Program-made: the position numbers and the translations under genes | Part shown: positions 3,029-27,240 of the stretch, one piece after another | How positions within the stretch are numbered: the first letter of the stretch is position 1 | Layout: each line of letters begins with the position of its first letter | Assembly (NCBI GenBank): GCA_964647575.1 | Contig: CAZYGF010000001.1 | Span: forward strand, 1 to 28,278 | DNA: 28,278 nt | Reading direction: 5' to 3' | Source: Candidatus Micrarchaeota archaeon | GTDB taxonomy: Archaea > Micrarchaeota > Micrarchaeia > Anstonellales > Bilamarchaeaceae | Notes under the pieces: model-generated | Database searches by the model: none | Seen by the model: only the letters and a program-made list of their open reading frames with translations | What the model was told of the DNA's origin: nothing

Positions 3029-3117
3029 TGGACTGCGCAGGGCCATGCCATATCTTTTTATTCGGTTGCCGGACAGAATAGGTTGGACGGCAGCCGTACG
3101 CCCGCCATGGTGTTCAC

Positions 3118-4122: not shown

Positions 4123-4147
4123 GCCCGGGGTGCCGGCAGGCACTTGA

Positions 4148-4154
4148 TTAATAA
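4148..4154 (+). promoter_or_regulatory. TATA-like box TTAATAA
   Basis: 23 nt upstream of ATG 4178. Confidence 0.45.
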
Positions 4155-4177
4155 TGTTTCAGCCCAACTGTCTCCCT

Positions 4178-4840: not shown

Positions 4841-4862
4841 GCCCAGTCCTTTTTCCAAATCC

Positions 4863-4868
4863 TTTTAA
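4863..4868 (+). promoter_or_regulatory. TATA-like box TTTTAA
   Basis: 25 nt upstream of the gmhB ATG at 4894. Confidence 0.45.
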
Positions 4869-4893
4869 GGCAGCAAAGGCAGAATATCCGCAT

Positions 4894-6161: not shown

Positions 6162-6170
6162 CACAGCCCG

Positions 6171-6190
6171 GTTTTCCCAGGGTTTTTTGT
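6171..6190 (+). terminator. Oligo(T) tracts after the nucleotidyltransferase stop, possible archaeal-type terminator
   Basis: GGTTTTCCCAGGGTTTTTTGT shortly after TGA 6161, in a convergent gap. Confidence 0.3.
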
Positions 6191-6251
6191 GTTATTAAAT
6201 ACTTTTTAAAGGACGCCGCCCCAACCATTGCCTATCTTGCTGGCGCTTTTT

Positions 6252-8075: not shown

Positions 8076-8124
8076 CTCTTCTCCCCATTGGCAGTCTCTG
8101 CTGCATTTTTATGCCCCCAAGCTG

Positions 8125-8130
8125 TTTAAA
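8125..8130 (+). promoter_or_regulatory. TATA-like box TTTAAA
   Basis: 22 nt upstream of ATG 8153, in a divergent gap. Confidence 0.45.
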
Positions 8131-8152
8131 GGCTTACATGCGATACCAATCC

Positions 8153-9064
8153 ATGCGAATTATCGTCACTGGAGGGGCAGGATTCATAGGCTCCCATCTC
8201 GTGGACAAACTTGTTTCCGAAGGTGCGGATGTGCTCGTCATAGACGACCTTTCCACAGGCAGAAAGGAGCAGGCCAATCCCAAGGCCCGCCTGGTCAGGA
8301 AGGACATACGCACGGACATATCGGCCGAACTTAGGGGTGCCGATGCCGTGTTCCATCTGGCCGCCGACCCGGAAGTCCGCAGGAGCGCGACCGAGCCAGG
8401 GCACGGCTTTGACATAAACGTCCGCGGCACCTTCAGCGTGCTGGAAGCATGCAGGAAAAGCGACGTGAAGCGCATCATCCTTGCCTCAACATCCACCGTC
8501 TACGGGGAGGCCAGGAAAATCCCCACACCAGAAGACCACCCCTGCATACCGGTCAGCAATTACGGCGCCAGCAAGCTCGCAGGCGAGGCATACGTGGCAT
8601 CGTACGCCGGGTCCTACGGCCTCAAGGGCACATCGCTCAGGTTCGCCAACATCTTCGGCGAGAGGAGCTCGCATGGCGTGATGTTCGATTTCTACCATAA
8701 GCTCAAAAAAACCCCGGAAAAGCTCGAGATACTTGGGGACGGGAAGCAGGACAAATCATACCTCTACGTGTCCGATTGCGTGGATGCCATGCTTACCGCC
8801 TGGACAAAGCAGAAGGCGCCATACGACGTCTTCAACGCGGGCAGCAGGGACCGCATCACCGTGGAATCCCTTGCCCGCCTCATGTGCGGCATCATGGGGG
8901 TTGAGCCTGAATTCTTCTACACAGGCACCAAGCGCGGCTGGACCGGAGACGTGCCGCTCATGCTCCTCGACGTCTCAAAACTGGAGGGGTTGGGATGGAA
9001 ACAGAAGGTCGGGTTCAAGCAGGGCATGGAGAGATACGTGCGCTGGCTGTCTTCCTCCAGGTGA
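8153..9064 (+). CDS. NAD-dependent epimerase/dehydratase (UDP-glucose 4-epimerase-like extended SDR)
   Basis: TGGAGFIG, HLAA, STSTVYG, YGASK (YxxxK), SYLYVSD. Start placed at ATG 8153. Confidence 0.9.
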   Translation: MRIIVTGGAGFIGSHLVDKLVSEGADVLVIDDLSTGRKEQANPKARLVRKDIRTDISAELRGADAVFHLAADPEVRRSATEPGHGFDINVRGTFSVLEACRKSDVKRIILASTSTVYGEARKIPTPEDHPCIPVSNYGASKLAGEAYVASYAGSYGLKGTSLRFANIFGERSSHGVMFDFYHKLKKTPEKLEILGDGKQDKSYLYVSDCVDAMLTAWTKQKAPYDVFNAGSRDRITVESLARLMCGIMGVEPEFFYTGTKRGWTGDVPLMLLDVSKLEGLGWKQKVGFKQGMERYVRWLSSSR

Positions 9065-9068
9065 GCGC

Positions 9069-9866
9069 ATGAGGGTCGTGGAAAGCATGAGGTGGTTCCT
9101 GTCCATTCCGTTTTACCCAGCCATCCCGTTCTCCGACCGTGCCCGCCTCGCCTACTACTACCTCAAATCCCTGCTCAACCGTTTCATCCTCCGGTTGAAG
9201 CCGTCAAACAGGCGCCTTAGCATATCCTACGCAGGCGAACCGCTTTATTTCAGGGACAACTGGTTCGACCCCCGCTCGGTCTATACGGTCTTCAGCAATG
9301 ATTATACCTCGCTGGACAATGGCATATTCGCCGGCCTGGGCACCTTCATCGACGTAGGCGCCAACGCCGGTTTCATCTCCCGCTGCGCGCGGCGTGCATC
9401 CCCCGGCTGCCGGATAATCTGCTTCGAACCGCTGCAGGAGAACACAGAGCTGTGCCGGCTGAACAACCCACATGCAGTGGTGGAGGCATGCGGAGTCGGC
9501 TCATCCAACGGCCCGAAGGAACTGCTGGTAGACGAGTGCGGCTTCATGGCCTCGAGCATCTGTTTCAGCTACCGCCAGGCAAAGAGGACCGTTCTGACCA
9601 CGACGCTTGACTCATACCTCAAAAAGCCCCAGACGATAGACCTTCTCAAGATTGATGTCGAGGGCATGGAAGCAGAGGTCCTTGCCGGAGCCAAACGGGT
9701 GCTCCCCGGAGTCCGGAGGGTCGTCGCCGAGGTGCATTCCAACGCGCTCCTCAGCCAGTTTTCCATCGCGATGAAGGGCTCCGGCTTCGAGGAAAACCGC
9801 ACCGCAGCCATCGGCAAGGAGACTTACATCACGGATTGGCGCAATGCGAGGTTTAAAACACGGTGA
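9069..9866 (+). CDS. FkbM-family SAM methyltransferase
   Basis: IDVGANAG, CFEP, LLKIDVEGME. Start placed at ATG 9069, just after the epimerase stop; the ORF-track extension from 8733 overlaps the epimerase. Confidence 0.85.
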   Translation: MRVVESMRWFLSIPFYPAIPFSDRARLAYYYLKSLLNRFILRLKPSNRRLSISYAGEPLYFRDNWFDPRSVYTVFSNDYTSLDNGIFAGLGTFIDVGANAGFISRCARRASPGCRIICFEPLQENTELCRLNNPHAVVEACGVGSSNGPKELLVDECGFMASSICFSYRQAKRTVLTTTLDSYLKKPQTIDLLKIDVEGMEAEVLAGAKRVLPGVRRVVAEVHSNALLSQFSIAMKGSGFEENRTAAIGKETYITDWRNARFKTR

Positions 9867-9870
9867 TTGA

Positions 9871-11016
9871 ATGGACGTAGTCCTGGTTCAGCCATTTCTT
9901 AACCAAAGGGGCGGCGGCGACAGGGTCATACTCGATATCGCAGAGAAGTTCAACCCGGTCATCTACACCACCATATACGAGCCTGGCAACACGTTCCCGG
10001 GCTTCCGCGAATTCGATGTACGCGTCCTCCCTAAAAACCCGGCAGAGTCAGCCCTTTTCTTTCTCAGGAACGACCCGCGCCGCTTCAACGGGGTGCGGGC
10101 CGGCCTCCGCTTCTACTTCAGCCGGCTAAAGGAAGACTATGACGTCATAAACGCCAACGGCTCGCCCTCTGAATGGATAAGGAACAGGAACCCCCGCGTG
10201 TGCTGGCTCGTTTACTCGCCCAGCCGCGAGGCCTTCGACCTGTATGACTGGCGCATGGCAAGGCTCGGCTTCCCGCAGAGGCAGCTCAACTACTGCATCA
10301 TCAGCGGCTTCAAGCAGGTGGAACATTCAATCGTGCCAAAAATAGAAAAGCTCTGCGCCATATCAGAAGTCGCCGAACAGCGCATAAGGAAATACCTCCA
10401 CCGGAACGATGCCGAAGTGATCCACCCCGGCATCGAAGTGCGCGACTTCGAGCCTGGAAGCTACGGGCGGTATTTCTTCATACCCTCCCGCATCGTGCCG
10501 GAGAAGCAGCTTGAGTTCAGCATAAGCGCGTTCCGGATTTTTTCCGGGAAGCACAGGGGCTGGAAGCTGGTAATTTCCGGGTTCATGCCCGGCCCTTCAG
10601 ACCCATATCTCAAAAAGATGAAAGGGCTGGCCGCTGGGCTTGACGTGCAATTCAGGGTCAATCCATCGGAAAAGGAATTCCATGGCATGTACTCCAACTG
10701 CTACGCAACCCTCTTCTCGGCGATAAACGAGGACTGGGGGCTTACGCCGCTGGAATCCATGGCATGCGAAAAGCCGTGCATCTCCATCAACCAGGGAGGC
10801 CCCAGATACAGCATAGTTGACGGGAAAACCGGTTTCCTGGTGGATTCCCCGGAAGAGATGGCGGAAAAGATGGCCTACCTTGCCGAAAACCCGGATGCAA
10901 ACGAGCGGATGGGCAAGGACGGGCGGAAGCATGTGGTGAAAAACTTCACCAAGGAGATTTTCCTGCAAAAGCTCGGGAAAGCGTTCAAGGAAGCCTCGGC
11001 AGCAGGGAATCGCTGA
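9871..11016 (+). CDS. GT4 glycosyltransferase (WbaZ/ALG2-like)
   Basis: GGGDRV, SRIVPEK, EDWGLTPLESMA (Ex7E), DGKTG. Confidence 0.88.
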   Translation: MDVVLVQPFLNQRGGGDRVILDIAEKFNPVIYTTIYEPGNTFPGFREFDVRVLPKNPAESALFFLRNDPRRFNGVRAGLRFYFSRLKEDYDVINANGSPSEWIRNRNPRVCWLVYSPSREAFDLYDWRMARLGFPQRQLNYCIISGFKQVEHSIVPKIEKLCAISEVAEQRIRKYLHRNDAEVIHPGIEVRDFEPGSYGRYFFIPSRIVPEKQLEFSISAFRIFSGKHRGWKLVISGFMPGPSDPYLKKMKGLAAGLDVQFRVNPSEKEFHGMYSNCYATLFSAINEDWGLTPLESMACEKPCISINQGGPRYSIVDGKTGFLVDSPEEMAEKMAYLAENPDANERMGKDGRKHVVKNFTKEIFLQKLGKAFKEASAAGNR

Positions 11017-11051
11017 ACTTCGCCGAGGGCATAATTTTTAATTACATTTGA

Positions 11052-11086
11052 GATAACCTTTTATCGGAGAAACCTACTCTTGGAGG
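11052..11086 (+). promoter_or_regulatory. Promoter/RBS of the NeuB operon: TTTTAT (11059-11064) inside palindrome GATAA-CCTT-TTATC, and GGAGG at 11082-11086
   Basis: Read directly from the AT-rich 77-nt intergenic gap. Confidence 0.5.
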
Positions 11087-11093
11087 GACTAGG

Positions 11094-12200
11094 ATGGCTA
11101 GACCAATCATACATCTGGGAAAATACAGCATATCCGAGGATTCGCCCTGCTTCGTAATCGCGGAGATAGGCCACAACCACCAGGGGAACCTGGACCTGGC
11201 CCGGAAAATGATTGATGCTGCGGCCCAGGCCGGAGCCAATGCCGTCAAGTTCCAGAAAAGGTCCAAGGACCTTTTCACCGCAGAGATGTACAACCGGCCT
11301 TACGACAATGAGAACAGCTTCGGCAAGACCTATGGCGCGCACCGGGAAGCCCTTGAATTCGGCGAATCCGAGTACAAGGCGCTGAAGGCCCATGCGGAGA
11401 GCCTCGGCCTGGTCTTCTTCGCCACGCCATTCGATATAAAAAGCGTAGAGTTCCTGGAAAAAATAGGGGTGCCTGCCTATAAGATAGCTTCCGCCTGCAT
11501 AACCGACATCCCGCTTATAGAGCACGTCGCAAAAAAAGGCAAGCCAATCTTCCTTTCACTCGGCACAGCAACGCTGGAAGACGTGGACCGGGCGTATAAG
11601 TGCGTCAAGGAGTACCGTGTCCCGCTATGCCTGCTCCACTGCGTGGCCGCCTATCCGATGATGAACTATGAGGAAGCCAACCTCAACGTGATCCATACAT
11701 TGAAGGAGCGCTACCCGGACGCGTTAATCGGATTCTCCAGCCATGAAAGCGGCATCGTGCTACCGGTCGTGGCGTACATGCTCGGCGCGAGGGTCGTGGA
11801 GAAGCATTTCACCCTGAACCGCGCGATGAAAGGGACCGACCAGCAGTATTCGCTTGAGCCGCAGGGGCTTACGAAGATGGTCCGTGACCTGAACCGCATC
11901 CGCGAAGCCCTGGGCGACGGCAAAAAGGTGGTACAGCCCTCGGAACTCGATGCGAAAAAGAAAATGGGGAAGAGCATCTTCGCCAGGACCCGCATACCCA
12001 AGGGTTCGGTGGTCTCTCCGGAAATGATAACTTTCAAGAGCCCCGGCACCGGCCTTCCCCCCTACCTTGTGGACGATGTCCTCGGGCGGACTGCAAACCG
12101 CGATATAGCCCCCGACGTTCCCATCGACTACTCCCTTCTCGGGCCCGAGAAAGTCAAAAAATTCGGCAAAGTTGACTGGGGTGCGTTGCTTGGGAAATGA
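11094..12200 (+). CDS. neuB: NeuB-family PEP-dependent ulosonate synthase with C-terminal SAF domain; resembles Neu5Ac-9-P/KDN-9-P synthases
   Basis: AEIGHNHQG, VKFQKR, RPY...SFGKTYGAH, KIAS, LHCVAAYP, GFSSHE, VEKHFTL, MKGTDQ. Confidence 0.92.
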   Translation: MARPIIHLGKYSISEDSPCFVIAEIGHNHQGNLDLARKMIDAAAQAGANAVKFQKRSKDLFTAEMYNRPYDNENSFGKTYGAHREALEFGESEYKALKAHAESLGLVFFATPFDIKSVEFLEKIGVPAYKIASACITDIPLIEHVAKKGKPIFLSLGTATLEDVDRAYKCVKEYRVPLCLLHCVAAYPMMNYEEANLNVIHTLKERYPDALIGFSSHESGIVLPVVAYMLGARVVEKHFTLNRAMKGTDQQYSLEPQGLTKMVRDLNRIREALGDGKKVVQPSELDAKKKMGKSIFARTRIPKGSVVSPEMITFKSPGTGLPPYLVDDVLGRTANRDIAPDVPIDYSLLGPEKVKKFGKVDWGALLGK

Positions 12201-12672
12201 TCCGGGCCGGATAAGCCTCGTCGCATTCGATTTTGACGGCGTCTTCACCGACAACCGCGTATATGTGGACCAGGACGGCCGGGAAAGCGTCTGCTGCAGC
12301 CGCTCCGACGGCATCGGCATCAGGAAACTGGACCGGGCCGGCATAAAATCAATAGTCATATCCGCTGAAACGAACCCGGTCGTGGAAAAGCGGTGCGCCA
12401 AACTGGGCATAAGGTGCGTGGCCGGCTGCAAAGACAAGCTTTCCGTATTGAAGGCGGCCATGGCCGAATCCGGAGTGGGGCGGGAATCCGTATGCTTCGT
12501 AGGCAACGACCTCCCGGATATAGAATGCCTCAGGTATGCCGGCCTTCCCGTTGCGGTCAGGGACAGCTGCCCAGAAGTGCTCGATGCTGCCAAGTACGTG
12601 ACATCCGCTCCAGGCGGCCGCGGGGCGGTGCGTGAAGTCTGCGACATGATTGTGAACGAGGGGAGAAAATGA
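12190..12672 (+). CDS. KdsC-like HAD phosphatase (ulosonate-phosphate phosphatase)
   Basis: FDFDGVFTDN, SRSDG, ISAE, KDK, VGNDLPD, GGRGAVREVCD. Probable TTG start at 12190 with GGGGTG upstream; alternatives 12172 and 12181. Confidence 0.85.
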   Translation: MGNDPGRISLVAFDFDGVFTDNRVYVDQDGRESVCCSRSDGIGIRKLDRAGIKSIVISAETNPVVEKRCAKLGIRCVAGCKDKLSVLKAAMAESGVGRESVCFVGNDLPDIECLRYAGLPVAVRDSCPEVLDAAKYVTSAPGGRGAVREVCDMIVNEGRK

Positions 12673-13457
12673 AAAAAATGTTCGATCTCAGCGGCAAAGT
12701 CGCTGTCGTGACAGGAGGCCTCGGCAACCTGGGGCAGGAATTCGTGAAGACGCTGCGGGATGCAGGTGCCAAAGTGGCCATACTGGAAATCCGGCCGGGC
12801 GCCTACAAGGACAAGGGCGTCATCGTGTGCGAAGCCGACATATCGGACAAGCTATCCTTATCCAGGGCGCTGGCCGATATAACCGCGCGGCTCGGCAAGC
12901 CATCCATACTGGTCAACTGCGCCGCCATCGACTCTCCGCCGGAATACGGCAGCGGAAAGAAAAGCGGGCTCATAGAGAGCGACGGGGCGGAAAAAACATA
13001 CGACAAGGTCATGGCAGTGAATGTCAAGGGCACGCTCCTTTGCTCACAGGTATTCGGCAATTTCATGGCTGAAAACGGCGGCGGCAGCATAATAAACATC
13101 TCATCCATCTATGGCGAGATTTCCCCGGACCAGCGGATATACCTCAGGAAGGGGAGGGAGCGGGAATTCTTCAAGCCCATAGCCTACTGCGTGAGCAAGG
13201 CCGCCATACCGAACATGACCCGTTATCTTGCCACATACTTCGCAGGCTCCAAAGTGCGGGTGAATACGCTCACATTCGGCGGGGTATTCAACAACCAGGA
13301 CCAGGAGTTCGTGGCCAACTACTCCTCCAAGGTGCCTCTCGGGAGGATGGCGAGAAAAGACGAATACAACGGCGCCGTCCTGTTCCTGGCGTCAGACGCT
13401 TCCTCCTACATGACAGGCTCCAACCTCGTGATAGACGGAGGATATACAAGCTGGTGA
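12669..13457 (+). CDS. Classical SDR oxidoreductase, similar in pattern to PtmA-like SDRs of nonulosonic acid clusters
   Basis: TGGLGNLG, NCAAID, IINISSIYG, YCVSK, VPLGRM, MTGSNLVIDGG. ATGA overlap with the phosphatase. Confidence 0.88.
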   Translation: MKKMFDLSGKVAVVTGGLGNLGQEFVKTLRDAGAKVAILEIRPGAYKDKGVIVCEADISDKLSLSRALADITARLGKPSILVNCAAIDSPPEYGSGKKSGLIESDGAEKTYDKVMAVNVKGTLLCSQVFGNFMAENGGGSIINISSIYGEISPDQRIYLRKGREREFFKPIAYCVSKAAIPNMTRYLATYFAGSKVRVNTLTFGGVFNNQDQEFVANYSSKVPLGRMARKDEYNGAVLFLASDASSYMTGSNLVIDGGYTSW

Positions 13458-14947
13458 TGACTATGGCAAAGCGGTTTTTCAACTTCATAGGCGGCGAGTG
13501 GAAGGACTCGGTTACCAAGAGGACCTTCGAGAAGAGGAACCCGGCCGATGCCAGCGAAGTTCTCGGCGTTTTTCCCCTCTCCGGCGCTGCCGATGTGGAG
13601 GCTGCCTGCCAGGCGGCGGGAAAAGCTTTCAAGGCATGGTCCAGCGTCACCCCGCCCGCGAGAGGGAAACTGCTTTTCGAAGCCGGGCGGCTGCTGGCTT
13701 CCAAGAAAGAGGAGCTGGCGCAGGTGCTGGTCAGGGAGACCGGCAAGACCACCAAGGAGGCGCTCGGAGAGGTCAATGCAGCCATAGACATGGCATACTT
13801 CATGGCCGGCGAAGGGAGGCGCCTCTACGGCGACGTGACGCACTCTGAGCTTCCGAACCGGTGGGCGCTGACCAAGCGCTGCCCAATAGGCGTATGCGGC
13901 ATAGTCACCCCGTGGAACTTCCCCATGTCGCTCATAAGCTGGAAGGTCTTCCCGGCGCTTATCTGCGGCAATGCCGTGGTCCTCAAGCCGGCCGAAGATG
14001 CACCCGAGACCGCGAACCGCATCGCAGAGATCCTGGCAGAGGCGGGCCTGCCGCCAGGCGTCCTGAACATCGTCCATGGGGCCGGCGAAGAGGCAGGCGA
14101 TGCGCTGGTGCGGAACGCAAACGTGAAGATGGTGTCGTTCACAGGGTCAAGCGAAGTCGGGAGGCGGATAGCCGCCATATGCGGGGAACGCCTAGCCAAG
14201 GTGTCGCTAGAGCTCGGGGGCAAGAATGCCGTCATAGTCATGGACGATGCTGATCTCGACCTGGCTGTCAGCGGGATAGTCAAAGGTGCCTTTACCGTGG
14301 CCGGGCAGCGTTGCACAGCCACAAGCAGGGCAATCGTCCACCGGCGCATCTACGACAAATTCATGGAGAAGCTCGTTGCAGAGACAAAACGGCTCAAGGT
14401 CGGCGCCGGCGGAAAAGACGGCACTGACGTATGCCCTGTCATCAACCGGAAGCAGCTGGAAAGGATTGCGAAATACGCGGAAACAGGCAAGAAGGAGGGC
14501 GCCAGGCTGGTGCTCGGCGGCCACGTCCTAAAGGAAGGCACGCACGCAAAAGGGTTCTTTTTCGAGCCTACCATATTCGGCGAAGTGCGGCCGGAGATGA
14601 CCGTGGCGAAGGAGGAGATATTCGGGCCTGTGCTCGCGGTCTTCAGGGCAGAGTCGCTCGAGCAGGCAATAGGGCTCCTGAACGACAGCGCCTATGGCCT
14701 GTCAGCATCCATATTCACAAAAGACATCAACGCCGCCCTTTCAGCCGTGGAAAGCTTCGAAACAGGCGTCTGCTACGTCAATGCCCCGACATTCGGCTCC
14801 GAGGTCCACCTCCCATTCGGCGGCATGAAAAAATCCGGCAACGGCCATCGCGAAGTGGGCAAGGCGGCGATTGAAGCGTTCTCAGACCTGAAGACGATAT
14901 ACCTGGACTATAGCGGGGTGATCCAGAATGCCCAGTTCAAAAAATAA
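13454..14947 (+). CDS. NAD(P)-dependent aldehyde dehydrogenase
   Basis: TPWNFP, KPAED, FTGS, LELGGKN (catalytic Glu), AGQRC (catalytic Cys), EEIFGP, PFGG. GTGA overlap with the SDR. Confidence 0.93.
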   Translation: MMTMAKRFFNFIGGEWKDSVTKRTFEKRNPADASEVLGVFPLSGAADVEAACQAAGKAFKAWSSVTPPARGKLLFEAGRLLASKKEELAQVLVRETGKTTKEALGEVNAAIDMAYFMAGEGRRLYGDVTHSELPNRWALTKRCPIGVCGIVTPWNFPMSLISWKVFPALICGNAVVLKPAEDAPETANRIAEILAEAGLPPGVLNIVHGAGEEAGDALVRNANVKMVSFTGSSEVGRRIAAICGERLAKVSLELGGKNAVIVMDDADLDLAVSGIVKGAFTVAGQRCTATSRAIVHRRIYDKFMEKLVAETKRLKVGAGGKDGTDVCPVINRKQLERIAKYAETGKKEGARLVLGGHVLKEGTHAKGFFFEPTIFGEVRPEMTVAKEEIFGPVLAVFRAESLEQAIGLLNDSAYGLSASIFTKDINAALSAVESFETGVCYVNAPTFGSEVHLPFGGMKKSGNGHREVGKAAIEAFSDLKTIYLDYSGVIQNAQFKK

Positions 14948-16835
14948 GCTCCTTTTCACCAATGGCGATTTTGAGAGGGCCCGGTCCCTGGCGATTGGAC
15001 AGGCTGAAAAACTGTCAATCATCGCAGATATGATCCGCTTCAATGCCCTCGCAGCCATAGTGCATGCGCGCTCCGGTCATATCGGCGCCTCCTTCAGTGC
15101 CATAGAGATCCTTGCGGTGCTGTACCACCACACGATGCGCCTGGATGCGCGCAAGCCAGGCCAGGCCGGGCGTGACATATTCATCCTGTCAAAAGGCCAT
15201 GCCGCCGCAGGCCAGTACGCGGCCCTGGCTTCCGCGGGGTTCATCCCAGAAGAGCGCCTCCTCAGCTTCAGGCAGTTCCGCGGCCTGCAGGGGCACGTGG
15301 ACGTATCCGTGCCCGGGGTGGACGCGAACACAGGGTCGCTTGGCATGGGTCTGTCCAAGGGCAAAGGATACGCCTGGGCCGCCAAGGCAGGAAAGACCGG
15401 CGCGTCGGTCTATGTTATGGTTGGCGATGGCGAGCTCCAGGAAGGGCAGAACTGGGAGGCAATCCAGTCAGCCCCGCACCTCAAGCTGGACAACCTCTAT
15501 CTCATAGTGGACCGGAACATGGTGCAGACGGACAGGGAAGTGCACAGGATACTGGACATATCCCCGCTTGACGAGAAGCTCAGGTCTTTCGGCTGGGATG
15601 TCATGACCATCGATGGTAATGACGTGGCTCAGGTCCTTGATGCCCTGGGCCGCAAGGCCGTAAGCGGAAAGCCCAAGGCTATTATCGCGAATACAATCAA
15701 GGGCAAAGGTGTATCCTTCATGGAGCACCCGGCCGTGCTGTCGCGCGACGGCGTCTACCGCTGGCACGGCAGCATACCGAAAGAGGAGGAATACCGCCTG
15801 GCTTACGATGAGCTGGCCCACAGGCTGATGGCACATCGGGATTTCACGTCATCCGGAATCTCTTTCCCGCAGTTCTTCTGCCCGGATGCTGTGCCGGCGG
15901 CTTTCAAGGGAAAGGCGCTGAAAAAGGCGTTTTCCGATTCGCTTGTGGAACTGGCGGAAAAACAGCGCCAGATGGTGGTGATGGATGCAGACCTGGCAGA
16001 GGACTGCGGCCTCAGGGATTTCGAAAACCGCCATCCGGACCGTTTCATCGAGGTCGGCATAGCCGAGCAGGACATGGTTTCCATGGCCGGCGGCCTGGCG
16101 CTGTGCGGCAAGCTGCCCATCGTCAATACGTACACCGCATTCCTCACTTCGCGCTCCAATGAGCAGATTTTCAACAACGCCTCGGAGAAGACGAAAATCA
16201 TCTATGTGGGCCATCTCGCCGGGCTGCTCCCTGCCAAGCCTGGCAAATCCCACCAGGGGCTGCGGGACATCTCCCTGCTCAGGGCGGTGCCCGACATCCT
16301 CCTCGGGGCTCCGTGCAACGCCGCGGAACTGAAGCAGATGATGGACTACTTCGTGCTCGGGACCGGCAGGAACTGCTACCTGCGGCTTGAGCACTTCCCC
16401 CCCAGGAACGACGTCCCCCTTCCGAAAGGCTACCGGCTCGGATTAGGGAAAGGCGCCATATTGGCAGAGGGCAAAGATGCAGCCGTGATAGCATACGGGT
16501 CGCTCATGCTCTCAGAGGCGCTGTCAGCCGCTGAAGAGCTAAAAAAAGACGGCATCAGGGTCCGGGTGATAAACCTCCCTTGGCTGAACAACATAGACGC
16601 CAGATGGCTGCTCAAGGCCATCGATGGCGTAAAGCATGTCTTTTGCATCGAGAACCATTCGCTCACAGGCGGCCAGGGGGAAGAGGTCCTGCGGCTGGCA
16701 GGGCCAGGGCACGTAGTCCACATCCTGGGCGTGGCCGGCTTCGGGCAGTCCGGGGAAGCCGAGGACATCCTGCGCAACTACTCGCTTGATTATAAATCCA
16801 TAAGCGCCAGAATCGCTGCGGAGGTAAGGAAATGA
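14928..16835 (+). CDS. ThDP-dependent transketolase-family enzyme, single chain, with a divergent substrate site
   Basis: SGHIG, SKGH, QGH, GSLG, GDGELQEG...DRN, WHG, DADLA, GIAEQ. The canonical GEDGPTHQ reads AKPGKSHQ. Confidence 0.88.
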   Translation: MPSSKNKLLFTNGDFERARSLAIGQAEKLSIIADMIRFNALAAIVHARSGHIGASFSAIEILAVLYHHTMRLDARKPGQAGRDIFILSKGHAAAGQYAALASAGFIPEERLLSFRQFRGLQGHVDVSVPGVDANTGSLGMGLSKGKGYAWAAKAGKTGASVYVMVGDGELQEGQNWEAIQSAPHLKLDNLYLIVDRNMVQTDREVHRILDISPLDEKLRSFGWDVMTIDGNDVAQVLDALGRKAVSGKPKAIIANTIKGKGVSFMEHPAVLSRDGVYRWHGSIPKEEEYRLAYDELAHRLMAHRDFTSSGISFPQFFCPDAVPAAFKGKALKKAFSDSLVELAEKQRQMVVMDADLAEDCGLRDFENRHPDRFIEVGIAEQDMVSMAGGLALCGKLPIVNTYTAFLTSRSNEQIFNNASEKTKIIYVGHLAGLLPAKPGKSHQGLRDISLLRAVPDILLGAPCNAAELKQMMDYFVLGTGRNCYLRLEHFPPRNDVPLPKGYRLGLGKGAILAEGKDAAVIAYGSLMLSEALSAAEELKKDGIRVRVINLPWLNNIDARWLLKAIDGVKHVFCIENHSLTGGQGEEVLRLAGPGHVVHILGVAGFGQSGEAEDILRNYSLDYKSISARIAAEVRK

Positions 16836-17548
16836 AGGTCCTCGCACTGATACTCGCCCGGGGCGGCTCGACCCGCATACCTAAGAAGAACATCGTCATG
16901 CTCGGAGGGCGCCCCCTCATCTTCTACACCATCGACGCTGCAAAGAGGTCAAAGCGCATAAACCGGATAATAGTTTCCACAGACAGCCGGGAAATCGCCG
17001 ACGTGGCCGTGAAATGCGGGGCAGAGGCGCCTTTCCTCAGGCCCGTGGAGATATCGAAATCAGATTCCACAGAGCTCGAAGCGTTCGAGCATGCGCTTGG
17101 CTGGCTCAAGGAGAACGAGGGCTATGTGCCCGACCTGATAGTCAAGCTCTTCCCGACATCGCCGTTCAGGAAGGCCGAATCAATAGACAAGGCGGTTGAG
17201 CTCATGATTGCCAATCCGGATGCGGACAGCGTCCGCTCAGTATGCCTCTGCAAGGAGCACCCCTACAAGATGTGGGTTATCGAGAACAAGCGCCTCAGGC
17301 CATTTGTGCCGTGGGAGAAGAAGCCGAAGGAGGCCCACACGCTCTCCTACCAGCTCCTGCCGCCGGTCTATGTGAACAACGCAAGCATCGATGTGACTAA
17401 ACCAGCAACGATATTCAATAAAAAATCCGTGACCGGAAGGGAGATCGTACCCTACCCGATGGAAGAATCGGAATCGCTCGACATCAATACCCGCATTGAC
17501 CTGGAACTCGCAAAAATCCTCATCGCGAAACCGCAGAAAGCCCGCTGA
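16832..17548 (+). CDS. neuA: CMP-ulosonic acid synthetase (acylneuraminate cytidylyltransferase family)
   Basis: ARGGSTRIPKKN, VSTD, PFLRP, PTSPFR, SLDI. ATGA overlap with the transketolase and GGAGGT RBS. Confidence 0.9.
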   Translation: MKVLALILARGGSTRIPKKNIVMLGGRPLIFYTIDAAKRSKRINRIIVSTDSREIADVAVKCGAEAPFLRPVEISKSDSTELEAFEHALGWLKENEGYVPDLIVKLFPTSPFRKAESIDKAVELMIANPDADSVRSVCLCKEHPYKMWVIENKRLRPFVPWEKKPKEAHTLSYQLLPPVYVNNASIDVTKPATIFNKKSVTGREIVPYPMEESESLDINTRIDLELAKILIAKPQKAR

Positions 17549-18784
17549 CTATACCACTTTCACTTCGGGCAGCGGCATGATGAACTTCCCGCCCTCATCC
17601 GCGAACCATTTCTCCTTCTTCGTTATCTCTTCGAAGTAGCTCCACGCCAGGATTAGTATGTAATCCGGCCTTTCCCTGTCTTCCCTCAGCCTTTTTGGCT
17701 GGAATATGGGTATGTGCACCCCCGGCATCACCCTGCCATACCTTTCCGGCGACTCATCAACCACATAATCAATCAAATCCTTCCCAAGGTTGCAGTAATT
17801 CAGCAGTATGGTGCCTCTTCCCGGCGCCCCGTAGGCGATTATCTTCTTGTTTTCGTATTTTAATTTTTTTATGAGGCCGGCAAGCTCCTTCTTTTTCCGT
17901 TCCACATTTTCCGCGAATTTCCTGTATCCCTTTTCGTCGTGCAGGCCCAGCGACTCTTCCAGGCGGATCAAATCGGCCACGGAGCGGTCCACATTATTTT
18001 TCCCGATTTTTTTCGCATGGACGCTTATGGAACCGGAATGTATCGGTATCCGTTTTACCCGTGTTATCTGCATCCCGTACCTGTTCATCAGGGCCTGGAG
18101 GGCCTTCACCGAGTAGTAGCACAGGTGCTCATGGTATATGGTATCGTACTGCACCTTCTCGATAAGGTCCACGATGTAGTGCACCTCAAAAACGAAAACG
18201 CCATCGTCTTTCAGCAATGTTTGTATGCCCTTCATGATGTCGTCTATGTCATCTATGTGCGCGAATACGTTATTCGCCAGCAGCATGTCCGCATTGCCCT
18301 TCTCGCTCCTGAGTTTTTCTGCAGTGCGTTCAGAGAAGAAATCGGTTATCACTTCCAACCCCTTTGCCTTCGCGACTTTCGCTATGTTCTCCGCCGGCTC
18401 AAATCCTATGCCCTTTACCCCCAGGTCCTCCAATGGCTTTAACAGGACGCCGTCATTGCATCCTATCTCCACAGCCAGCGAATCCCCGCCCAGCCCATAT
18501 TCCGAAACGAGCTCCCGTGCGTGCCGTTCGAAATGCTCCCGCAACGTTTTAGTGACCGATGACAGGTACCTGTAGTCCATGAACAGTATTTCCGGCGGCA
18601 CGATATCCATTATCTGCACCAGGGAGCAGGCCCTGCAGAAATAAACATCCAGCGGGAATTTCTGTTCCTGGGGTATCTGCTCCTCTTTTATGAATCCGCC
18701 TGCCAGCGGGACGTTTCCCAATGAAAGGAATCTTACGACATCCTTGCCATGGCAGACCCTGCAGTCCTCTCTATGGTTTAACAT
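17549..18784 (-). CDS. NDP-hexose 3-C-methyltransferase (TylC3/TcaB9/NovU family)
   Basis: Zn site CRVC...CRAC, EIGCNDG, NNVFAHI, IYHEH, YGAPGRG, PGVHIPI, LAWSY. Confidence 0.88.
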   Translation of the reverse strand: MLNHREDCRVCHGKDVVRFLSLGNVPLAGGFIKEEQIPQEQKFPLDVYFCRACSLVQIMDIVPPEILFMDYRYLSSVTKTLREHFERHARELVSEYGLGGDSLAVEIGCNDGVLLKPLEDLGVKGIGFEPAENIAKVAKAKGLEVITDFFSERTAEKLRSEKGNADMLLANNVFAHIDDIDDIMKGIQTLLKDDGVFVFEVHYIVDLIEKVQYDTIYHEHLCYYSVKALQALMNRYGMQITRVKRIPIHSGSISVHAKKIGKNNVDRSVADLIRLEESLGLHDEKGYRKFAENVERKKKELAGLIKKLKYENKKIIAYGAPGRGTILLNYCNLGKDLIDYVVDESPERYGRVMPGVHIPIFQPKRLREDRERPDYILILAWSYFEEITKKEKWFADEGGKFIMPLPEVKVV

Positions 18785-19643
18785 AAGGTTTCCTCTTCCA
18801 GGCGTAGGTCGTCATGTGCTGCGGATACGCTGTTTTCGTCTCGTACCCATATTCAGGGAGCAACTTCTCCAGCGCGTATCGTGTATACTTCCCGTCCACT
18901 ATGTGGTTGGATGCTATCGCCAGGTGGGCATCGCTCTGCGCCAAAATCCGTTTCGCTCCCTTTACGGTCTCTATCTCGGCCCCTTCGATATCCATCTTTA
19001 TGAAATCCACCTTCTCTATGCCCAGCGCCCTGAGCTCTTCGTCCAGGGTGACCACCGGCACCTCGATGACGCTTTTGGCCGCGCTTGGATTCGGGATTAT
19101 CGGGCTTTTCGACTTGTCCAGGAAAAGCGTGGACGTTCCCAGCCCCTTATTGTCGAACTTCATCTTCCCGGATTTGCTCCAGGTCGCCTTGTTCAGCAAT
19201 ATGACGTTGTGCACGCCGTTCATTTCTAGATTCCTGGCTGTCCTTTCATAATTGACCGGGTCCGGCTCGAACGCTATCACCTTCCCGTTTTTCCCGGCGA
19301 GTTTTGCCGCATATATGGTGAAGATGCCTATGTACGCCCCGCAGTCCACTATGGTGTCTCCTTCCGTGATATTGTATGCGCCCAAATCCCCCTTTAGGAG
19401 GTGGGGGATGCGGCTCCAGAACTCATCCAGGTTCCACATGTCCTTGGGGCATTTCAACGAGATGCCGTTGGAGAACCGGTATTCGAAATAATTGTCGCCC
19501 CCGGCAATCTCGCACGGGATGTTGTGCGTATGATAATAGATGGGGTATAGCTTAAGCCGCAGGAAATCCTTGGGCGCGCATTCCGGGCAATACTGGAAAA
19601 ACCTGAAAAATACCGCATTTTCCATCTTTGTAAGTATGCCCAT
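18771..19643 (-). CDS. FkbM-family SAM methyltransferase
   Basis: VDCGAYIG, AFEPDP, FIKMDIEGAE. GGTGA RBS. Confidence 0.87.
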   Translation of the reverse strand: MGILTKMENAVFFRFFQYCPECAPKDFLRLKLYPIYYHTHNIPCEIAGGDNYFEYRFSNGISLKCPKDMWNLDEFWSRIPHLLKGDLGAYNITEGDTIVDCGAYIGIFTIYAAKLAGKNGKVIAFEPDPVNYERTARNLEMNGVHNVILLNKATWSKSGKMKFDNKGLGTSTLFLDKSKSPIIPNPSAAKSVIEVPVVTLDEELRALGIEKVDFIKMDIEGAEIETVKGAKRILAQSDAHLAIASNHIVDGKYTRYALEKLLPEYGYETKTAYPQHMTTYAWKRKPYVKP

Positions 19644-22351: not shown

Positions 22352-23005
22352 ATGGCATTAAGACAGACTCTTAAAAGCGTGCTATGCCCCTTTTACGAAC
22401 CTTTCATACCTAGTTATGAAACCGAACTAAGAAACGCCGTGGCTGGCTGCAAAAGCCTGCTGGACGTCGGCTGCGGTTCTTCCTCTCCCATAAAGGCCTT
22501 CTCGAAAAGCCTATACTGCGTCGGAGTGGACCTTTTCGAACCCAGCATCAAGGAGAGCAGGAAACAAAAAATCCATAACATGTGTTACGTGCTGGATGTC
22601 CTCGACATAGATAAGCGTTTCAAGGAAAAATCCTTCGATTGCGTCGTGGCCCTGGGGGTCATAGAGCACCTGGATAAAAAAGCCGGTATCGCGCTATTGA
22701 AAAAAATGGAGAAAGTCGCTAAGAAAAAAATAATCATCACAATGCCCAACGGCTTCGTGCCCCAGGGCGTTCATTTCGGCAATCCCCTCCAGGTCCACAG
22801 GTCCGGCTGGACCGTTGAAGAGATGAGGCGGTACGGATATGACGTGATCGGCATAAGCGGGTGGAAACCCCTCCGTGGGGAGGCCGGCCATATAAAATAT
22901 CAGCCCGATACGTTCTGGGCTGGCGTTTCCCTCCTGTCAAAACCAATCGTGAGAAACATGCCCGAACATGCCTTTGAACTGCTGTGCATCAAGCAGCTCT
23001 CATGA
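22352..23005 (+). CDS. Class I SAM-dependent methyltransferase
   Basis: LLDVGCG, GVDL, SFDCVVALGVIEHL, ITMPN. Confidence 0.85.
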   Translation: MALRQTLKSVLCPFYEPFIPSYETELRNAVAGCKSLLDVGCGSSSPIKAFSKSLYCVGVDLFEPSIKESRKQKIHNMCYVLDVLDIDKRFKEKSFDCVVALGVIEHLDKKAGIALLKKMEKVAKKKIIITMPNGFVPQGVHFGNPLQVHRSGWTVEEMRRYGYDVIGISGWKPLRGEAGHIKYQPDTFWAGVSLLSKPIVRNMPEHAFELLCIKQLS

Positions 23006-23057
23006 GCCTGCCGGCAGCAATCAGGCCGTGTATCGCATTTTTATTCGTGCGGGTCTA

Positions 23058-24464
23058 ATGAAAAACCAACAATGTCCCGAGGTGGATCCGATAACCAAAT
23101 CAAGGCCAAAAGTGAGACTTCTATACCCCCCAGACATCACCACCGTTGAGTTCGGTGTCCTCTTCTCCCTCTATCTCAAGGCGTTGGAGAAGCTTTCAAA
23201 AGAAGGTTTTGATGTAGGGGTAATAGGCCGTATGCCGGAGTCTGCTTTCAGGAAAACCTACGACACCTCCCTGTCATATCTGGACTTCTTCAAATCCGGA
23301 CAATTCTCAAGGAAACTCTCGCAAAAAGAGGTGGAAGATGCGGAGACTTATATGGGGCTCCCCTTCAACTACATCCTCTTTGCCAACCAGAAACGGTGGC
23401 ACTGGCTGAGCAAGCCCGGCCTGTACGAGAAAGCCGCCAGGGAAGTGTATGCATGGAAAGATGCCCTGAAAGACACGGACGTCATCCTCCCCACCCTGGA
23501 CAACCTGTTTTTCTTGTATAGCGCCGAGCGGGTCGCTGACCGGATGGGCGTGAAAATCATCAAGCCGATCCGCGGGCGCCTGGTCAATGACAGCCTGATT
23601 TTCTGGGACAAGGACAATCTCCCCATCTACTACAAGACGGATTACGGCGGCGATATCGCGGAGAAATTCACTGCAAGGGCATTAAGCCAGAAAACCAACG
23701 TGAAAATCGCCGAAACGGCCATAATCAAGACGGAAAACCTGCGCAAGCGGCTGATGGACGTGCCCCGAAAATTCAAGCTGTTGTTCCAGAGCAACAGGGC
23801 CGGTGTGGACGCGGATATCCCTGCATTCATCCCGAAATACAAGCGCCTCATATCAATGGGCCTGAGGCTCCTTGTCTACCCGAAGCTGCATGCCCTTTTC
23901 TTCGAGCGCCCCAAAAAAGAGGCGTATTTCCTATTTCCGCTCCATTACGAATGGGAAGCGCAACTGGCATTCCGTGAGCCTTTCATAAGCCAGCTCGGCC
24001 TGGCGAAGCAAATCTCGGAAATCCTGCCCAGCAACACGTACCTCTATATCAAGGTCCACCCGCATTGGAAAAACGCAGACCAGAGCCTGCGGGCGGTGTA
24101 CGGGCTGAGGAAAGCGAAGAATGTCCGTTTCATCCACCCGGAAGAGAATACCACCGACCTGGTCAGGAATTCCCTCGGGGTCATCATAATCAACTCCACC
24201 GTCGGCTATGAGGCCATCCTCCTGAAAAAGCCGCTGGTAGTGCTGGGGCATGAGGCGTATAAGGAGGCCGCGATAGACATGAAGGACCTGGCCGAGCTCC
24301 CGAAAACGCTCGCAAGGATAAAAAGCGGGGAATACAAGGTCGACGCAACGCATTACGAAAACTTCCTGAAAAAATACGCTGGCAACATCACCTCCACCAA
24401 TGACCCGGAGAAATTCACCCACGAGCTGAAGAACGTCATACTCTGGGTTCTTCAAAACGGCTGA
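23058..24464 (+). CDS. KpsS/KpsC-like (Capsule_synth family) protein, candidate CMP-ulosonate transferase
   Basis: FLFPLHYEWEAQ, YIKVHPHW, INSTVGYEAILLKKPLVVLG. Start placed at ATG 23058; alternatives GTG 23082 and 23112. Confidence 0.72.
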   Translation: MKNQQCPEVDPITKSRPKVRLLYPPDITTVEFGVLFSLYLKALEKLSKEGFDVGVIGRMPESAFRKTYDTSLSYLDFFKSGQFSRKLSQKEVEDAETYMGLPFNYILFANQKRWHWLSKPGLYEKAAREVYAWKDALKDTDVILPTLDNLFFLYSAERVADRMGVKIIKPIRGRLVNDSLIFWDKDNLPIYYKTDYGGDIAEKFTARALSQKTNVKIAETAIIKTENLRKRLMDVPRKFKLLFQSNRAGVDADIPAFIPKYKRLISMGLRLLVYPKLHALFFERPKKEAYFLFPLHYEWEAQLAFREPFISQLGLAKQISEILPSNTYLYIKVHPHWKNADQSLRAVYGLRKAKNVRFIHPEENTTDLVRNSLGVIIINSTVGYEAILLKKPLVVLGHEAYKEAAIDMKDLAELPKTLARIKSGEYKVDATHYENFLKKYAGNITSTNDPEKFTHELKNVILWVLQNG

Positions 24465-25671: not shown

Positions 25672-25686
25672 CCCACGGCTGGCATA

Positions 25687-25693
25687 TTAAAAA
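25687..25693 (+). promoter_or_regulatory. TATA-like box TTAAAAA
   Basis: 22 nt upstream of the gmhA ATG at 25716. Confidence 0.45.
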
Positions 25694-25715
25694 ACTCACC
25701 CTCCTAAATCCAACC

Positions 25716-26294: not shown

Positions 26295-26300
26295 CGTCAT

Positions 26301-27236: not shown

Positions 27237-27240
27237 TGCC

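Follow-up and report, generated by a model that had tools for sequence, protein, structure and literature searches.

A transketolase-like enzyme with a rebuilt sugar-phosphate pocket in a putative CMP-ulosonic acid operon of Micrarchaeota

The window analyzed here, the whole 28,278-nucleotide stretch from a Candidatus Micrarchaeota archaeon, carries consecutive same-strand genes for a NeuB-family synthase, a KdsC-like phosphatase, an SDR, an aldehyde dehydrogenase (ALDH), a transketolase-like (TK-like) protein, and a CMP-transferase (Table 1). The genes from the HAD phosphatase through the CMP-transferase are translationally coupled, with overlaps of 4–20 nt. A NeuB synthase and a CMP-cytidylyltransferase, with an optional KdsC-type phosphatase, mark a CMP-ulosonic acid operon, and all three are found in the window. 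This combination of a NeuB-family synthase, a KdsC-family phosphatase, and a CTP_transf_3 cytidylyltransferase resembles Kdn and sialic-acid pathways, but the known ones lack the TK, ALDH, and SDR trio. The NeuB-family protein scored 303.8 bits on the NCBIfam NeuB model (cut-off 399.65), the nearest model of the CMP-transferase was PseF (134.7 bits vs 205.7), and neither these two nor the phosphatase reached an equivalog cut-off for Neu5Ac, Pse, or Kdo enzymes; by cut-offs, the operon is not equivalent to a known Neu5Ac, Pse, Leg, Kdn, or Kdo pathway. The best named NCBIfam matches of the SDR were sugar-acid dehydrogenases (gluconate 5-dehydrogenase and mannonate oxidoreductase), all sub-cut-off, and the ALDH was nearest to alpha-ketoglutaric semialdehyde dehydrogenase (554 bits, below the cut-off of 770). 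In the PDB, the SDR, ALDH, and NeuB proteins matched generic relatives only, and the called neighbours in the loci examined included no conserved amino-sugar genes. The window also holds heptose-pathway genes, namely an SIS isomerase, a PfkB kinase, and a nucleotidyltransferase.

Table 1. Genes and sequence features of the TK-like locus, in window coordinates. Ec, E. coli TktA; Hs, human TK.
Feature	Position	Strand	Basis or remark
GT1/GT4 glycosyltransferase, head of the same-strand gene run	9871..11016	+	Equally placed in archaeal locus L093
NeuB-family PEP-condensing ulosonic acid synthase	11094..12200	+	Pfam NeuB and SAF
KdsC-type HAD phosphatase	12172..12672	+	TIGR01670 111.9, over the 106.95 cut-off
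Classical SDR, 262 aa; start 4 nt inside HAD stop	12669..13457	+	Pfam adh_short_C2
ALDH, 497 aa; end overlaps TK-like start by 20 nt	13454..14947	+	Pfam Aldedh, E 4e-173
TK-like ThDP enzyme, 635 aa	14928..16835	+	ORF, ATG start; three Pfam TK domains
PP (ThDP diphosphate-binding) domain, aa 32–263	15021..15716	+	Carries SGH, KGH, QGH, and GDG...N motifs
ALKKAF; EcR358/HsR318 (first phosphate-binding Arg) to K332	15915..15932	+	Alignments
DADLAEDC; EcS385/HsS345 to D359, then near-invariant C360	15984..16007	+	Alignments
GHLAGLLPAKPGKSHQGLRD; rebuilt substrate loop	16209..16268	+	Alignments; motif matches 80/83 loci
YLRLEHFPPRN; EcR520/HsR474 (second phosphate-binding Arg) to H489; R493 downstream	16377..16409	+	Alignment to split-TK YLRLGR
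CMP-ulosonic acid cytidylyltransferase (CTP_transf_3); start overlaps TK-like stop by 4 nt	16832..17548	+	Pfam
Capsule_synth (KpsS/KpsC-like), candidate CMP-sugar transferase	22968..24464	+	Recurs in archaeal relatives L001, L093, L096

We quantified the conservation of this neighbourhood in 47 loci with ≥ 8 kb on both sides, scoring five partners (NeuB, HAD, SDR, ALDH, and CMP-transferase) within 9 kb of the TK-like gene. At least two partners were present in 32 of the 47 loci and all five in 15. The gene set is shared by Micrarchaeia, Methanoregulaceae, Chloroflexota, Desulfobacterota, Planctomycetota, Acidobacteriota, Nitrospirota, and other lineages, with per-gene identities of 41–63%. The phosphatase and the SDR are not universal: several Chloroflexota loci consist of NeuB, ALDH, CMP-transferase, and TK only, and the phosphatase is absent from the close archaeal relatives L093 and L096. 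At most one partner was found in 15/47 loci (Ignavibacteriales, some Actinomycetes, and Chthonomonas), and in Ignavibacteriales and Chthonomonas the TK-like gene stands alone amid unrelated genes; the clade is therefore not confined to neuB operons, a restriction that the preliminary description had raised as a check. A distant Streptomyces homologue lies in a NeuB-SDR-TK operon with a class III aminotransferase in place of the ALDH, and some bacterial operons add an enolase-superfamily dehydratase and an ApbA-type 2-ketoacid reductase.

The TK-like protein has the PP/Pyr/C fold of the TK superfamily, since Transketolase_N (PF00456; aa 32–263, E 1e-37), Transket_pyr (PF02779; aa 330–477, E 2e-27), and Transketolase_C (PF02780; aa 507–625, E 1e-18) all exceed their gathering scores. 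Its best matches in the PDB are short-form TKs, led by human TKT (3MOS/4KXU; E 3e-77) and followed by the split TK of Carboxydothermus hydrogenoformans (6YAK/6YAJ; E 7e-64/3e-42). With these it shares the three domains, the ThDP/Mg2+ motif, the cofactor-activating Glu, and the whole catalytic His set (E. coli H26, H66, H100, H261, and H473). Retention of the cofactor and catalytic positions had been claimed before, and every motif listed then was located in the ORF: SGH (49–51), KGH (89–91), QGH (121–123), GDGELQEGQN (166–175, with N197), WHG (279–281), GIAEQ (377–381), and SHQ (441–443). Residues H51, H91, H123, D167, E172, N197, H280, E380, and H442 are invariant across 120 homologues. In TK structures, the His residues of this catalytic set, H123 and H280 among them, touch the donor C1-OH, in keeping with ketol chemistry.

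The distal half of the pocket is different. In E. coli TktA, the substrate phosphate is bound by R358, S385, H461, and R520, and the stereo-selecting D469 contacts the acceptor 2-OH or donor 4-OH. Substitutions at these positions were read from three independent alignments, one by HMMER against human TK and two by MAFFT; because R358, S385, and H461 fall wrongly in a linker and a loop when E. coli TktA is aligned globally by MAFFT, inspected alignments containing human and split TKs were used. All three reproduce the gap-free match of ALKKAF...DADLAED to ASRKAS...SADLAPS that had been drawn by hand, with R358 replaced by Lys and S385 by Asp. The K332 position is Lys in 19/120 homologues and Arg in none; at the D359 position, 78/120 carry Asp and 34/120 carry Ser, and the motif D-x-D-L-x-x-D-C recurs in 82/83 loci. 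They also agree on the replacement of the second phosphate-binding Arg by H489, described earlier as a change from ILSR to RLEH: YLRLEH, with a strand at 482–486 in the AlphaFold2 (AF2) model, aligns with split-TK YLRLGR and human FIRTSR, and the 120 homologues carry H, I, or N here, never Arg. A semi-conserved Arg, R493 in the window protein, lies 4–5 residues past H489.

Between these sites, the substrate loop GHLAGLLPAKPGKSHQGLRD keeps H429 and H442 but has a one-residue insertion and an invariant R446, where short-form TKs have a Glu after HQ. Given the extra residue, the invariant H429 is most likely still the counterpart of H461/HsH416. The TK consensus GEDGP-[ST]-[HQ] becomes AKPGKSH, changing E468 to K437, D469/HsD424 to P438, and P471 to K440. 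The loss of D469, read earlier as GEDGPTHQ turned into AKPGKSHQ, was recovered in all three alignments, and Pro occupies the position in 119/120 homologues. Both of the gained Lys residues noted with it are present in the window protein; K440 extends across the family (105/120), and K437 is specific to a clade (51/120). Among the Asp and Lys changes, only K440 is thus family-wide and D359 partly so, and the earlier suggestion that the Asp and new Lys may suit a substrate carrying a carboxylate or nucleotide is tentative.

The substitutions mark the family as a whole and are no peculiarity of one protein, as no homologue among the 120 has Arg at either phosphate position. At least 588 species genomes contain relatives. 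In a neighbour-joining tree, proteins with the altered residues form a distinct clade that is sister to human and split-type TKs. The closest canonical enzymes, namely human TK and the split TKs of Enterococcus, Fusobacterium, and Solidesulfovibrio, keep the R...H...D...R set. The possibility that housekeeping TKs commonly share the substitutions finds no support among these bacterial split-type and human comparators, to which the comparison extends. We ran the NCBIfam TK and DXS models on six family members, including the window protein, and all six fell below every TK and DXS cut-off. The window protein scored 434.8 on NF004559 (cut-off 488; the other five scored 387–410), 194.5 on TIGR00232 (cut-off 682), and 193.9 on the DXS model TIGR00204 (cut-off 465.95). 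No family member turned up in a tblastn search of 72,556 plasmids; the best matches, split TKs at 41% identity, served as canonical comparators. Some sources label family members as DXS. Sequence comparison shows that the TK-like gene belongs to a large clade of uncharacterised ThDP enzymes, which keeps the TK cofactor and catalytic half and has lost the distal substrate residues. Strong comparative support for the earlier proposal that it is no pentose-phosphate enzyme comes from the separate clade, the missing phosphate Arg residues, the sub-cut-off scores, the usual operon setting, and the intact canonical relatives.

An ordinary housekeeping TK that happens to lie in a glycan cluster, for instance to supply sedoheptulose 7-phosphate to the heptose genes of the window, is accordingly a very unlikely reading, even though those genes are close by and the gene stands alone in Ignavibacteriales and Chthonomonas. 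Canonical relatives keep the Arg pair and the Asp that all 120 homologues have replaced, the scanned members miss every curated TK cut-off, and the NeuB/ALDH/CMP-transferase synteny also holds where a genome has no heptose genes. The annotation of Melioribacter roseus lists two transketolases (PMC3534657), so the family member there need not be the housekeeping one. Identity with DXS is ruled out by the cut-offs and the substrate residues: the DXS model is missed widely, and the GAP-binding R420, D427, and R478 of DXS align with L430, P438, and H489. Identity to DXS is 21–24%, and there is no MEP-pathway context. A DXS-like enzyme or keto-acid decarboxylase/carboligase, which would decarboxylate pyruvate or a sugar alpha-keto-acid end and then add C2 to an aldehyde or release an aldehyde for the ALDH, is unlikely but deserves more weight than a housekeeping role. 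Two independent AF2 models (pTM 0.90 and 0.92; pLDDT 91.7 for the TK-like protein) superpose on DXS with TM 0.74–0.78 and on human TK with 0.45–0.47, and their predicted PP/Pyr packing is intra-chain as in DXS and not TK-like, although this arrangement comes from monomer-only prediction without a control. The Pyr and C domains also match DXS (E 1e-32), the H-x-AG-L motif before the HQ loop resembles D-R-AG-L of DXS, and the DXS labels point the same way. Against this, human and split TKs match over the full length at 263 bits, whereas DXS matches the C-terminal half at 116 bits, and the clade groups with TKs in the tree. The DXS-like domain placement nevertheless leaves some room for decarboxylative chemistry.

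The replaced phosphate pocket and the recurring CMP-sugar operon suggest that the TK-like enzyme probably edits the carbon chain of a CMP-activated acidic sugar rather than serving central metabolism. In the pathway that we favour, at roughly even odds (about 0.5), the SDR forms a ketol on a ulosonic acid, the TK-like enzyme removes C2, and the ALDH oxidises the resulting aldehyde, giving a CMP-activated ulosaric (Dha-like) acid. From PEP and an aldose, free or phosphorylated, NeuB would build a 3-deoxy-2-ulosonic acid, probably a nine-carbon, Kdn-like one, and the phosphatase, where present, would strip its terminal phosphate. The SDR would then oxidise the penultimate hydroxyl to a terminal HOCH2-C(=O)- ketol, the donor group recognised by transketolase. 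Cleavage of the C–C bond beside the ketone would transfer a glycolaldehyde unit to ThDP and leave an aldehyde on the shortened sugar acid, which the ALDH would turn into a second carboxylate; the 3-deoxy-hept-2-ulosaric acid would receive CMP and pass onto a surface glycan. The rebuilt pocket may bind a ring-closed sugar acid bearing a carboxylate or CMP, and a substrate whose "4-OH" is the ring oxygen would explain the dispensable Asp. Weak, sub-threshold hints for two steps come from the relatives of the SDR (gluconate 5-dehydrogenase), which oxidise the penultimate carbon of sugar acids, and from the nearest model of the ALDH, the substrate of which is a 2-keto-3-deoxy acid ending in an aldehyde. 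The exchange of ALDH for an aminotransferase in Streptomyces is what one would expect of a TK-like enzyme that yields an aldehyde intermediate, and the dehydratase and ApbA-type reductase of some operons require a hydroxy-acid terminus, in line with a carboxylate being newly formed. Counting against the pathway, the similarities of the SDR and ALDH are generic, some loci lack the SDR or the phosphatase, nearly a third of the well-flanked loci have one partner or none, and both AF2 models predict a DXS-like placement of the domains. By stereochemical reasoning, Dha itself is excluded as a product from Kdn, the shortening of which would give the L-arabino heptulosaric acid rather than the D-lyxo configuration of Dha.

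The same enzymes could also act in the reverse order, the SDR and TK-like protein cutting a free keto-sugar acid such as 5-keto-gluconate into glycolaldehyde and a four-carbon aldehyde-acid, to which NeuB would add PEP to form a heptulosaric acid while the ALDH clears glycolaldehyde. A carboxylate-bearing ketose would suit the lost phosphate site, gluconate 5-dehydrogenase is among the best named SDR matches, and many loci, relatives at 91% and 60% among them, do without the phosphatase, as would suit a NeuB substrate that is not phosphorylated; the cleavage of 5-keto-gluconate by TK has, moreover, already been proposed (PMC7970118). We nevertheless regard this order as improbable: a co-expressed ALDH would compete for the aldehyde substrate of NeuB, a KdsC-family phosphatase over its curated cut-off lies in the window and accompanies the other partners in the 15 complete loci, NeuB comes first in gene order, and the Streptomyces aminotransferase argues that a sugar aldehyde, not glycolaldehyde, is processed.

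The proposed shortening of a ulosonic acid by ketol formation and C2 removal follows the logic of the proposed plant tartrate route, in which L-idonate dehydrogenase yields 5-keto-D-gluconate, transketolase releases tartrate semialdehyde, and a semialdehyde dehydrogenase forms the second carboxylate (PMC7970118). The steps of the plant route are unconfirmed and ascribed to a promiscuous housekeeping TK, whereas the operon pairs a dedicated, remodelled TK with an SDR and an ALDH, and the substrate would be a ulosonic acid. The searchable literature contained no description of the TK-like family or operon and no link between transketolase and nonulosonic acid synthesis; the single co-occurrence, in Clostridium butyricum, is unrelated. 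We tentatively propose, as a possibility that we rate below even, that NeuB, SDR, TK-like enzyme, ALDH, and CMP-transferase form an undescribed and widespread prokaryotic route to CMP-3-deoxy-heptulosaric (Dha-type) acid through two-carbon shortening of a nonulosonic acid.

Dha is a constituent of plant RG-II and of the LPS of Acinetobacter haemolyticus and is also found in green algae (PMC3355719, PMC4019464); a 2025 review (PMC12168206) still counts its biosynthesis and nucleotide form among the unknowns. If our reading is correct, the operon would supply the first candidate enzymes for heptulosaric (Dha-type) acids, a concrete and testable set, and the TK-like protein would be the first dedicated TK-family enzyme that edits a ulosonic acid side chain, combining TK catalytic residues with a predicted DXS-like architecture. 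Its remodelled pocket, a natural example of TK specificity shifted off phosphorylated substrates, is also relevant to biocatalysis. On the same reading, the proteins labelled "transketolase" or "DXS" that form an enzyme class of their own would number in the thousands, and genomes in which they are counted as such would be credited with too much pentose-phosphate or isoprenoid capacity. C–C cleavage by a ThDP enzyme would join the known ways of diversifying sialic-acid-like sugars, and many uncultured bacteria and DPANN-type archaea would be predicted to display a new acidic dicarboxylate sugar at their surfaces.

Pfam places three domains in the transketolase-like (TK-like) protein under study, PP (residues 32–263), Pyr (330–477), and a C-terminal domain (507–625), all far over gathering scores. 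Its top solved relative in HMMER searches was human transketolase (TK), aligned end to end (263 bits, E = 3e-77), and the split-gene transketolase of Carboxydothermus hydrogenoformans was also among the best; DXS, by comparison, matched the C-terminal half only (116 bits), and matches to E. coli-type TKs were mostly confined to the N-terminal domain. All motifs that a preliminary description had listed as kept (SGH, KGH, QGH, GDG...EG...N, WHG, GIAE, and SHQ) were found, with GIAE extending to GIAEQ, and H51, H91, H123, D167, E172, N197, H280, E380, and H442 proved invariant when the 120 best homologues were aligned (120/120).

The substitutions claimed for the substrate site were checked in three ways, by a HMMER alignment to human TK and by two MAFFT alignments that took in E. 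coli TktA and DXS (MG1655), human TK, and plasmid-borne canonical split TKs, and they were borne out. R358 of E. coli TktA (Ec; R318 in human TK, Hs) corresponds to K332 in the three alignments, EcS385/HsS345 to D359, which is followed by C360, and EcR520/HsR474 to H489, while the loop EcE468-D469-G-P471 reads K437-P438-G-K440, losing the Asp and gaining two Lys. On the basis of yeast, E. coli, and human TK structures, we take EcR358, S385, H461, and R520 to bind the substrate phosphate and D469 to bind the acceptor 2-OH. The H489 assignment appears robust, because the preceding strand YLRLEH is near-identical to YLRLGR of the split TKs and is a beta-strand in the predicted model; R493, a partly conserved Arg in the family alignment, lies four residues further on. 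In alignment, the substrate loop is one residue longer than in canonical TKs, and because of this extra residue the invariant H429 is most probably still equivalent to the phosphate-contacting EcH461. As judged from these alignments, the protein is a predicted ThDP enzyme whose catalytic half-site is intact and whose distal half-site has been replaced.

The altered residues are, by alignment, a family trait and not a peculiarity of the window protein. Among the 120 best database matches, all full-length and at least 44% identical, the loop reads H-x-[AS]-G-x-x-P-A-x-P-G-K-S-H-Q. The R358 column holds V, L, A, K, or S and the R520 column I, H, or N, never R in either; the D469 column is Pro in 119. 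Lys is found at K440 in 105, Asp at D359 in 78 (with Ser in 34), Cys at C360 in 118, and Arg at R446, in place of the canonical Glu, in 119. The loop motif was matched in 80 of 83 loci examined. The closest named homologues come from Micrarchaeota and Hadarchaeales MAGs, and a pattern scan with one genome per GTDB species found relatives in at least 588 genomes, in lineages including Methanoregulaceae, Chloroflexota, Desulfobacterota, Planctomycetota, Ignavibacteriota, Actinomycetota, Gemmatimonadota, Acidobacteriota, and Nitrospirota.

A housekeeping TK is one rival explanation for this protein. The Arg...His...Asp...Arg set is kept in canonical short TKs, represented by human TK and by split TKs from Enterococcus gilvus, Fusobacterium vincentii, and Solidesulfovibrio carbinolicus, whose identity to the query reaches 41%. 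The preliminary description would have been refuted by the same substitutions being common in housekeeping archaeal transketolases; the check covered these human and bacterial comparators, which have not lost the Arg pair or the Asp. (The E. gilvus split TK adjoins dihydroxyacetone kinase.) Six family members including the window protein scored 387–435 bits against the nearest NCBIfam transketolase model (cut-off 488) and fell far under the cut-offs of DXS models. In a neighbour-joining tree without bootstrap, the family and a 38%-identical Streptomyces homologue grouped together, with human and split TKs as their sister group and DXS outside. The protein is a member of the TK superfamily but departs from transketolase proper in three defining features that were tested: it lacks the Arg pair, lacks the Asp, and scores under the curated cut-off. 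The earlier proposal that it is not a pentose-phosphate enzyme is well supported by the loss of these residues and the missed cut-off.

DXS-like or decarboxylative chemistry is another rival, and it draws on predicted structure. AlphaFold2 monomer models of the window protein (m434d679f53b3; 20 sequences, pLDDT 91.7, pTM 0.90) and of P0104, a 45%-identical homologue (ma7045472bc93; 71 sequences, pLDDT 93.9, pTM 0.92), both show DXS-type domain packing: they superpose globally on DXS structures (TM 0.72–0.78, rmsd 3–6 Å) and poorly on TKs of human, bacterial, or plant origin (TM 0.41–0.47, rmsd 20–22 Å; 0.45–0.47 for human TK). The models offer a lead that PP and Pyr of one chain pair as in DXS, instead of bridging the two subunits of the dimer as they do in TK. 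When only a monomer is predicted, contacts between subunits can end up folded into a single chain, and the packing would reflect either a true intra-chain active site in the family or an artefact of monomer prediction. Both proteins are nevertheless closer in sequence identity to human TK than to DXS, and the TK-like protein lacks the DXS features tested in its sequence, a score above the curated cut-off and the GAP-binding residues. Its mode of action is most like that of a transketolase, plausibly one whose substrate is acidic and not phosphorylated.

The TK-like gene is the fifth in a translationally coupled, same-strand run of six, with a GT1/GT4 glycosyltransferase gene upstream.

Genes of the translationally coupled run in the window
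Feature	Position	Strand	Remarks
NeuB-family synthase	11094-12200	+	
KdsC-family phosphatase (HAD)	12172-12672	+	TIGR01670 111.9 vs cut-off 106.95
Classical SDR	12669-13457	+	
Aldehyde dehydrogenase (ALDH)	13454-14947	+	
TK-like gene	14928-16835	+	ORF, ATG start, 635 aa
CMP-type cytidylyltransferase	16832-17548	+	

Outside this run the window is a surface-glycan locus, whose products include methyltransferases, GT2, a CapD-like dehydratase, and a Capsule_synth protein of KpsS/KpsC-like type and which also carries heptose genes; an archaeal-type D-aminoacyl-tRNA deacylase is encoded there as well. The nucleotide-heptose set (24541–27729 and 4894–6161) comprises an SDR/epimerase, SIS isomerase, PfkB kinase, cytidylyltransferase-like protein, HAD phosphatase, and NTP-transferase; in the bacterial locus L089, too, the module (the TK-like gene and its five partners) is flanked by HldE-like and heptosyltransferase genes. 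The nucleotidyltransferase genes are separated from the epimerase gene by a 607-aa ORF without Pfam match (6252–8075, −). Beside the operon are a sugar C-methyltransferase (Methyltransf_13/14 plus zinc domain) and two FkbM-type methyltransferases (17549–18784, −; 18771–19643, −; 8733–9866, +). Genes of FkbM type again adjoin the module in L001, L003, L093, L094, and L096, which suggests that the sugar or glycan is methylated.

The module is also found in Micrarchaeia (L001, L096), in a 91% relative (L093), and in bacteria (L003, L005, L089, L094; TK identity 41–47%). Across 47 genome loci in which the TK gene is flanked by 8 kb or more in each direction, tblastn with the window proteins found at least two of the five partners in 32 and all five in 15. 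Its linkage to genes for a PEP-condensing ulosonic acid synthase, an oxidoreductase, an ALDH, and a CMP-transferase is thus tight and conserved. Composition varies: the KdsC-type phosphatase is present in the window and L001 and cleanly absent between NeuB and SDR in L093 (3553–3664) and L096 (6696–6735), and some Chloroflexota loci hold NeuB-ALDH-CMP-transferase-TK only. The operon of one bacterial locus, L005 (L006 is a duplicate of it), carries two inserted genes, one for an enolase-superfamily dehydratase and one for an ApbA-type reductase. A 430–450 aa protein that matches no Pfam family and bears a 'RELD' motif near its N terminus, often encoded directly downstream of the TK-like gene in bacterial loci (L094 10993–12297, L005 10252–11610, and at least 10 others), is a candidate transferase for the CMP-sugar.

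Confinement of the clade to neuB operons, raised earlier, did not hold, as 15 of the 47 well-flanked loci had none or one of the partners. Actinomycetes among these still have glycopolymer genes as neighbours (PMT_2, TagF-like, MR_MLE), and related loci carry the module 7–9 kb upstream. Loci from Melioribacter, Ignavibacteriales, and Chthonomonas (L023, L048, L086, and similar) combine the full altered motif with unrelated neighbours (PdxJ, CitMHS, histidine kinase, DinB, GHMP kinase), and no NeuB, ALDH, or CMP-transferase was found within 9 kb. The annotation of Melioribacter roseus lists two transketolases (PMC3534657), so its housekeeping enzyme need not be the family member.

As the best mechanism we propose that two carbons are trimmed from the tail of an ulosonic acid, and we give this account as a whole a probability of about 0.5. 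The SDR would oxidise the penultimate hydroxyl of the ulosonic acid, free or CMP-linked, to a terminal ketol, which the TK-like enzyme would cleave to leave an aldehyde, and ALDH would convert this aldehyde to a second carboxylate; a nine-carbon acid would yield a 3-deoxy-heptulosaric acid. Ketol chemistry is hinted at by the retained donor-contacting His residues, and loss of the Asp may be compatible, since the hydroxyl that it normally reads would, in an ulosonic acid of pyranose form, be the ring oxygen. The best named relatives of the SDR include gluconate 5-dehydrogenase, and the nearest model for ALDH is alpha-ketoglutaric semialdehyde dehydrogenase, both below threshold. A new carboxylate is hinted at by L005, because the two accessory enzymes there, the dehydratase and the 2-ketoacid reductase, require substrates that end in a hydroxy acid. 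The steps could also run in the reverse order, and a point against tail shortening is that the SDR and phosphatase are not universal among loci. By Fischer-projection reasoning, 8-keto-Kdn has the D-threo arrangement needed by TK donors; as a source of Dha itself it was rejected, as the product would be the L-arabino and not the D-lyxo isomer. The nearest functional analogy is plant tartrate formation from 5-keto-D-gluconate, for which dehydrogenase/TK/semialdehyde-dehydrogenase logic has been proposed (PMC7970118). Dha is known from plant RG-II, from the coverings of prasinophytes and Mesostigma, and from the LPS of Acinetobacter haemolyticus (PMC3355719, PMC4019464); a 2025 review still lists its enzymes and nucleotide form as unknown (PMC12168206), and we found no full-text literature linking transketolase with nonulosonic/Kdn-type pathways or heptulosaric acid synthesis.

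A distant fused homologue (38% identity) that lost both Arg, LAGLLPAGPGHSHQ, is encoded on the Streptomyces sp. NBC_01237 plasmid NZ_CP108509.1 (L090, ~541–11395), in the order NeuB-SDR-TK-RmlD-like-HAD-class III aminotransferase. The aminotransferase takes the position of ALDH, which fits an aldehyde intermediate. The run directly follows HmaS/Hmo/HpgT-like hydroxyphenylglycine genes and looks like a natural-product cluster for an aminated, chain-edited sugar acid. A canonical-type split transketolase with R, H, D, and R kept adjoins FabG on S. carbinolicus pDCAR1 (L091, 2204–4748), in a pseF/acylneuraminate cytidylyltransferase cluster that also encodes methyltransferases and an ATP-grasp protein. 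Because of this split TK, ThDP enzymes in nonulosonic-acid clusters may be a wider theme.
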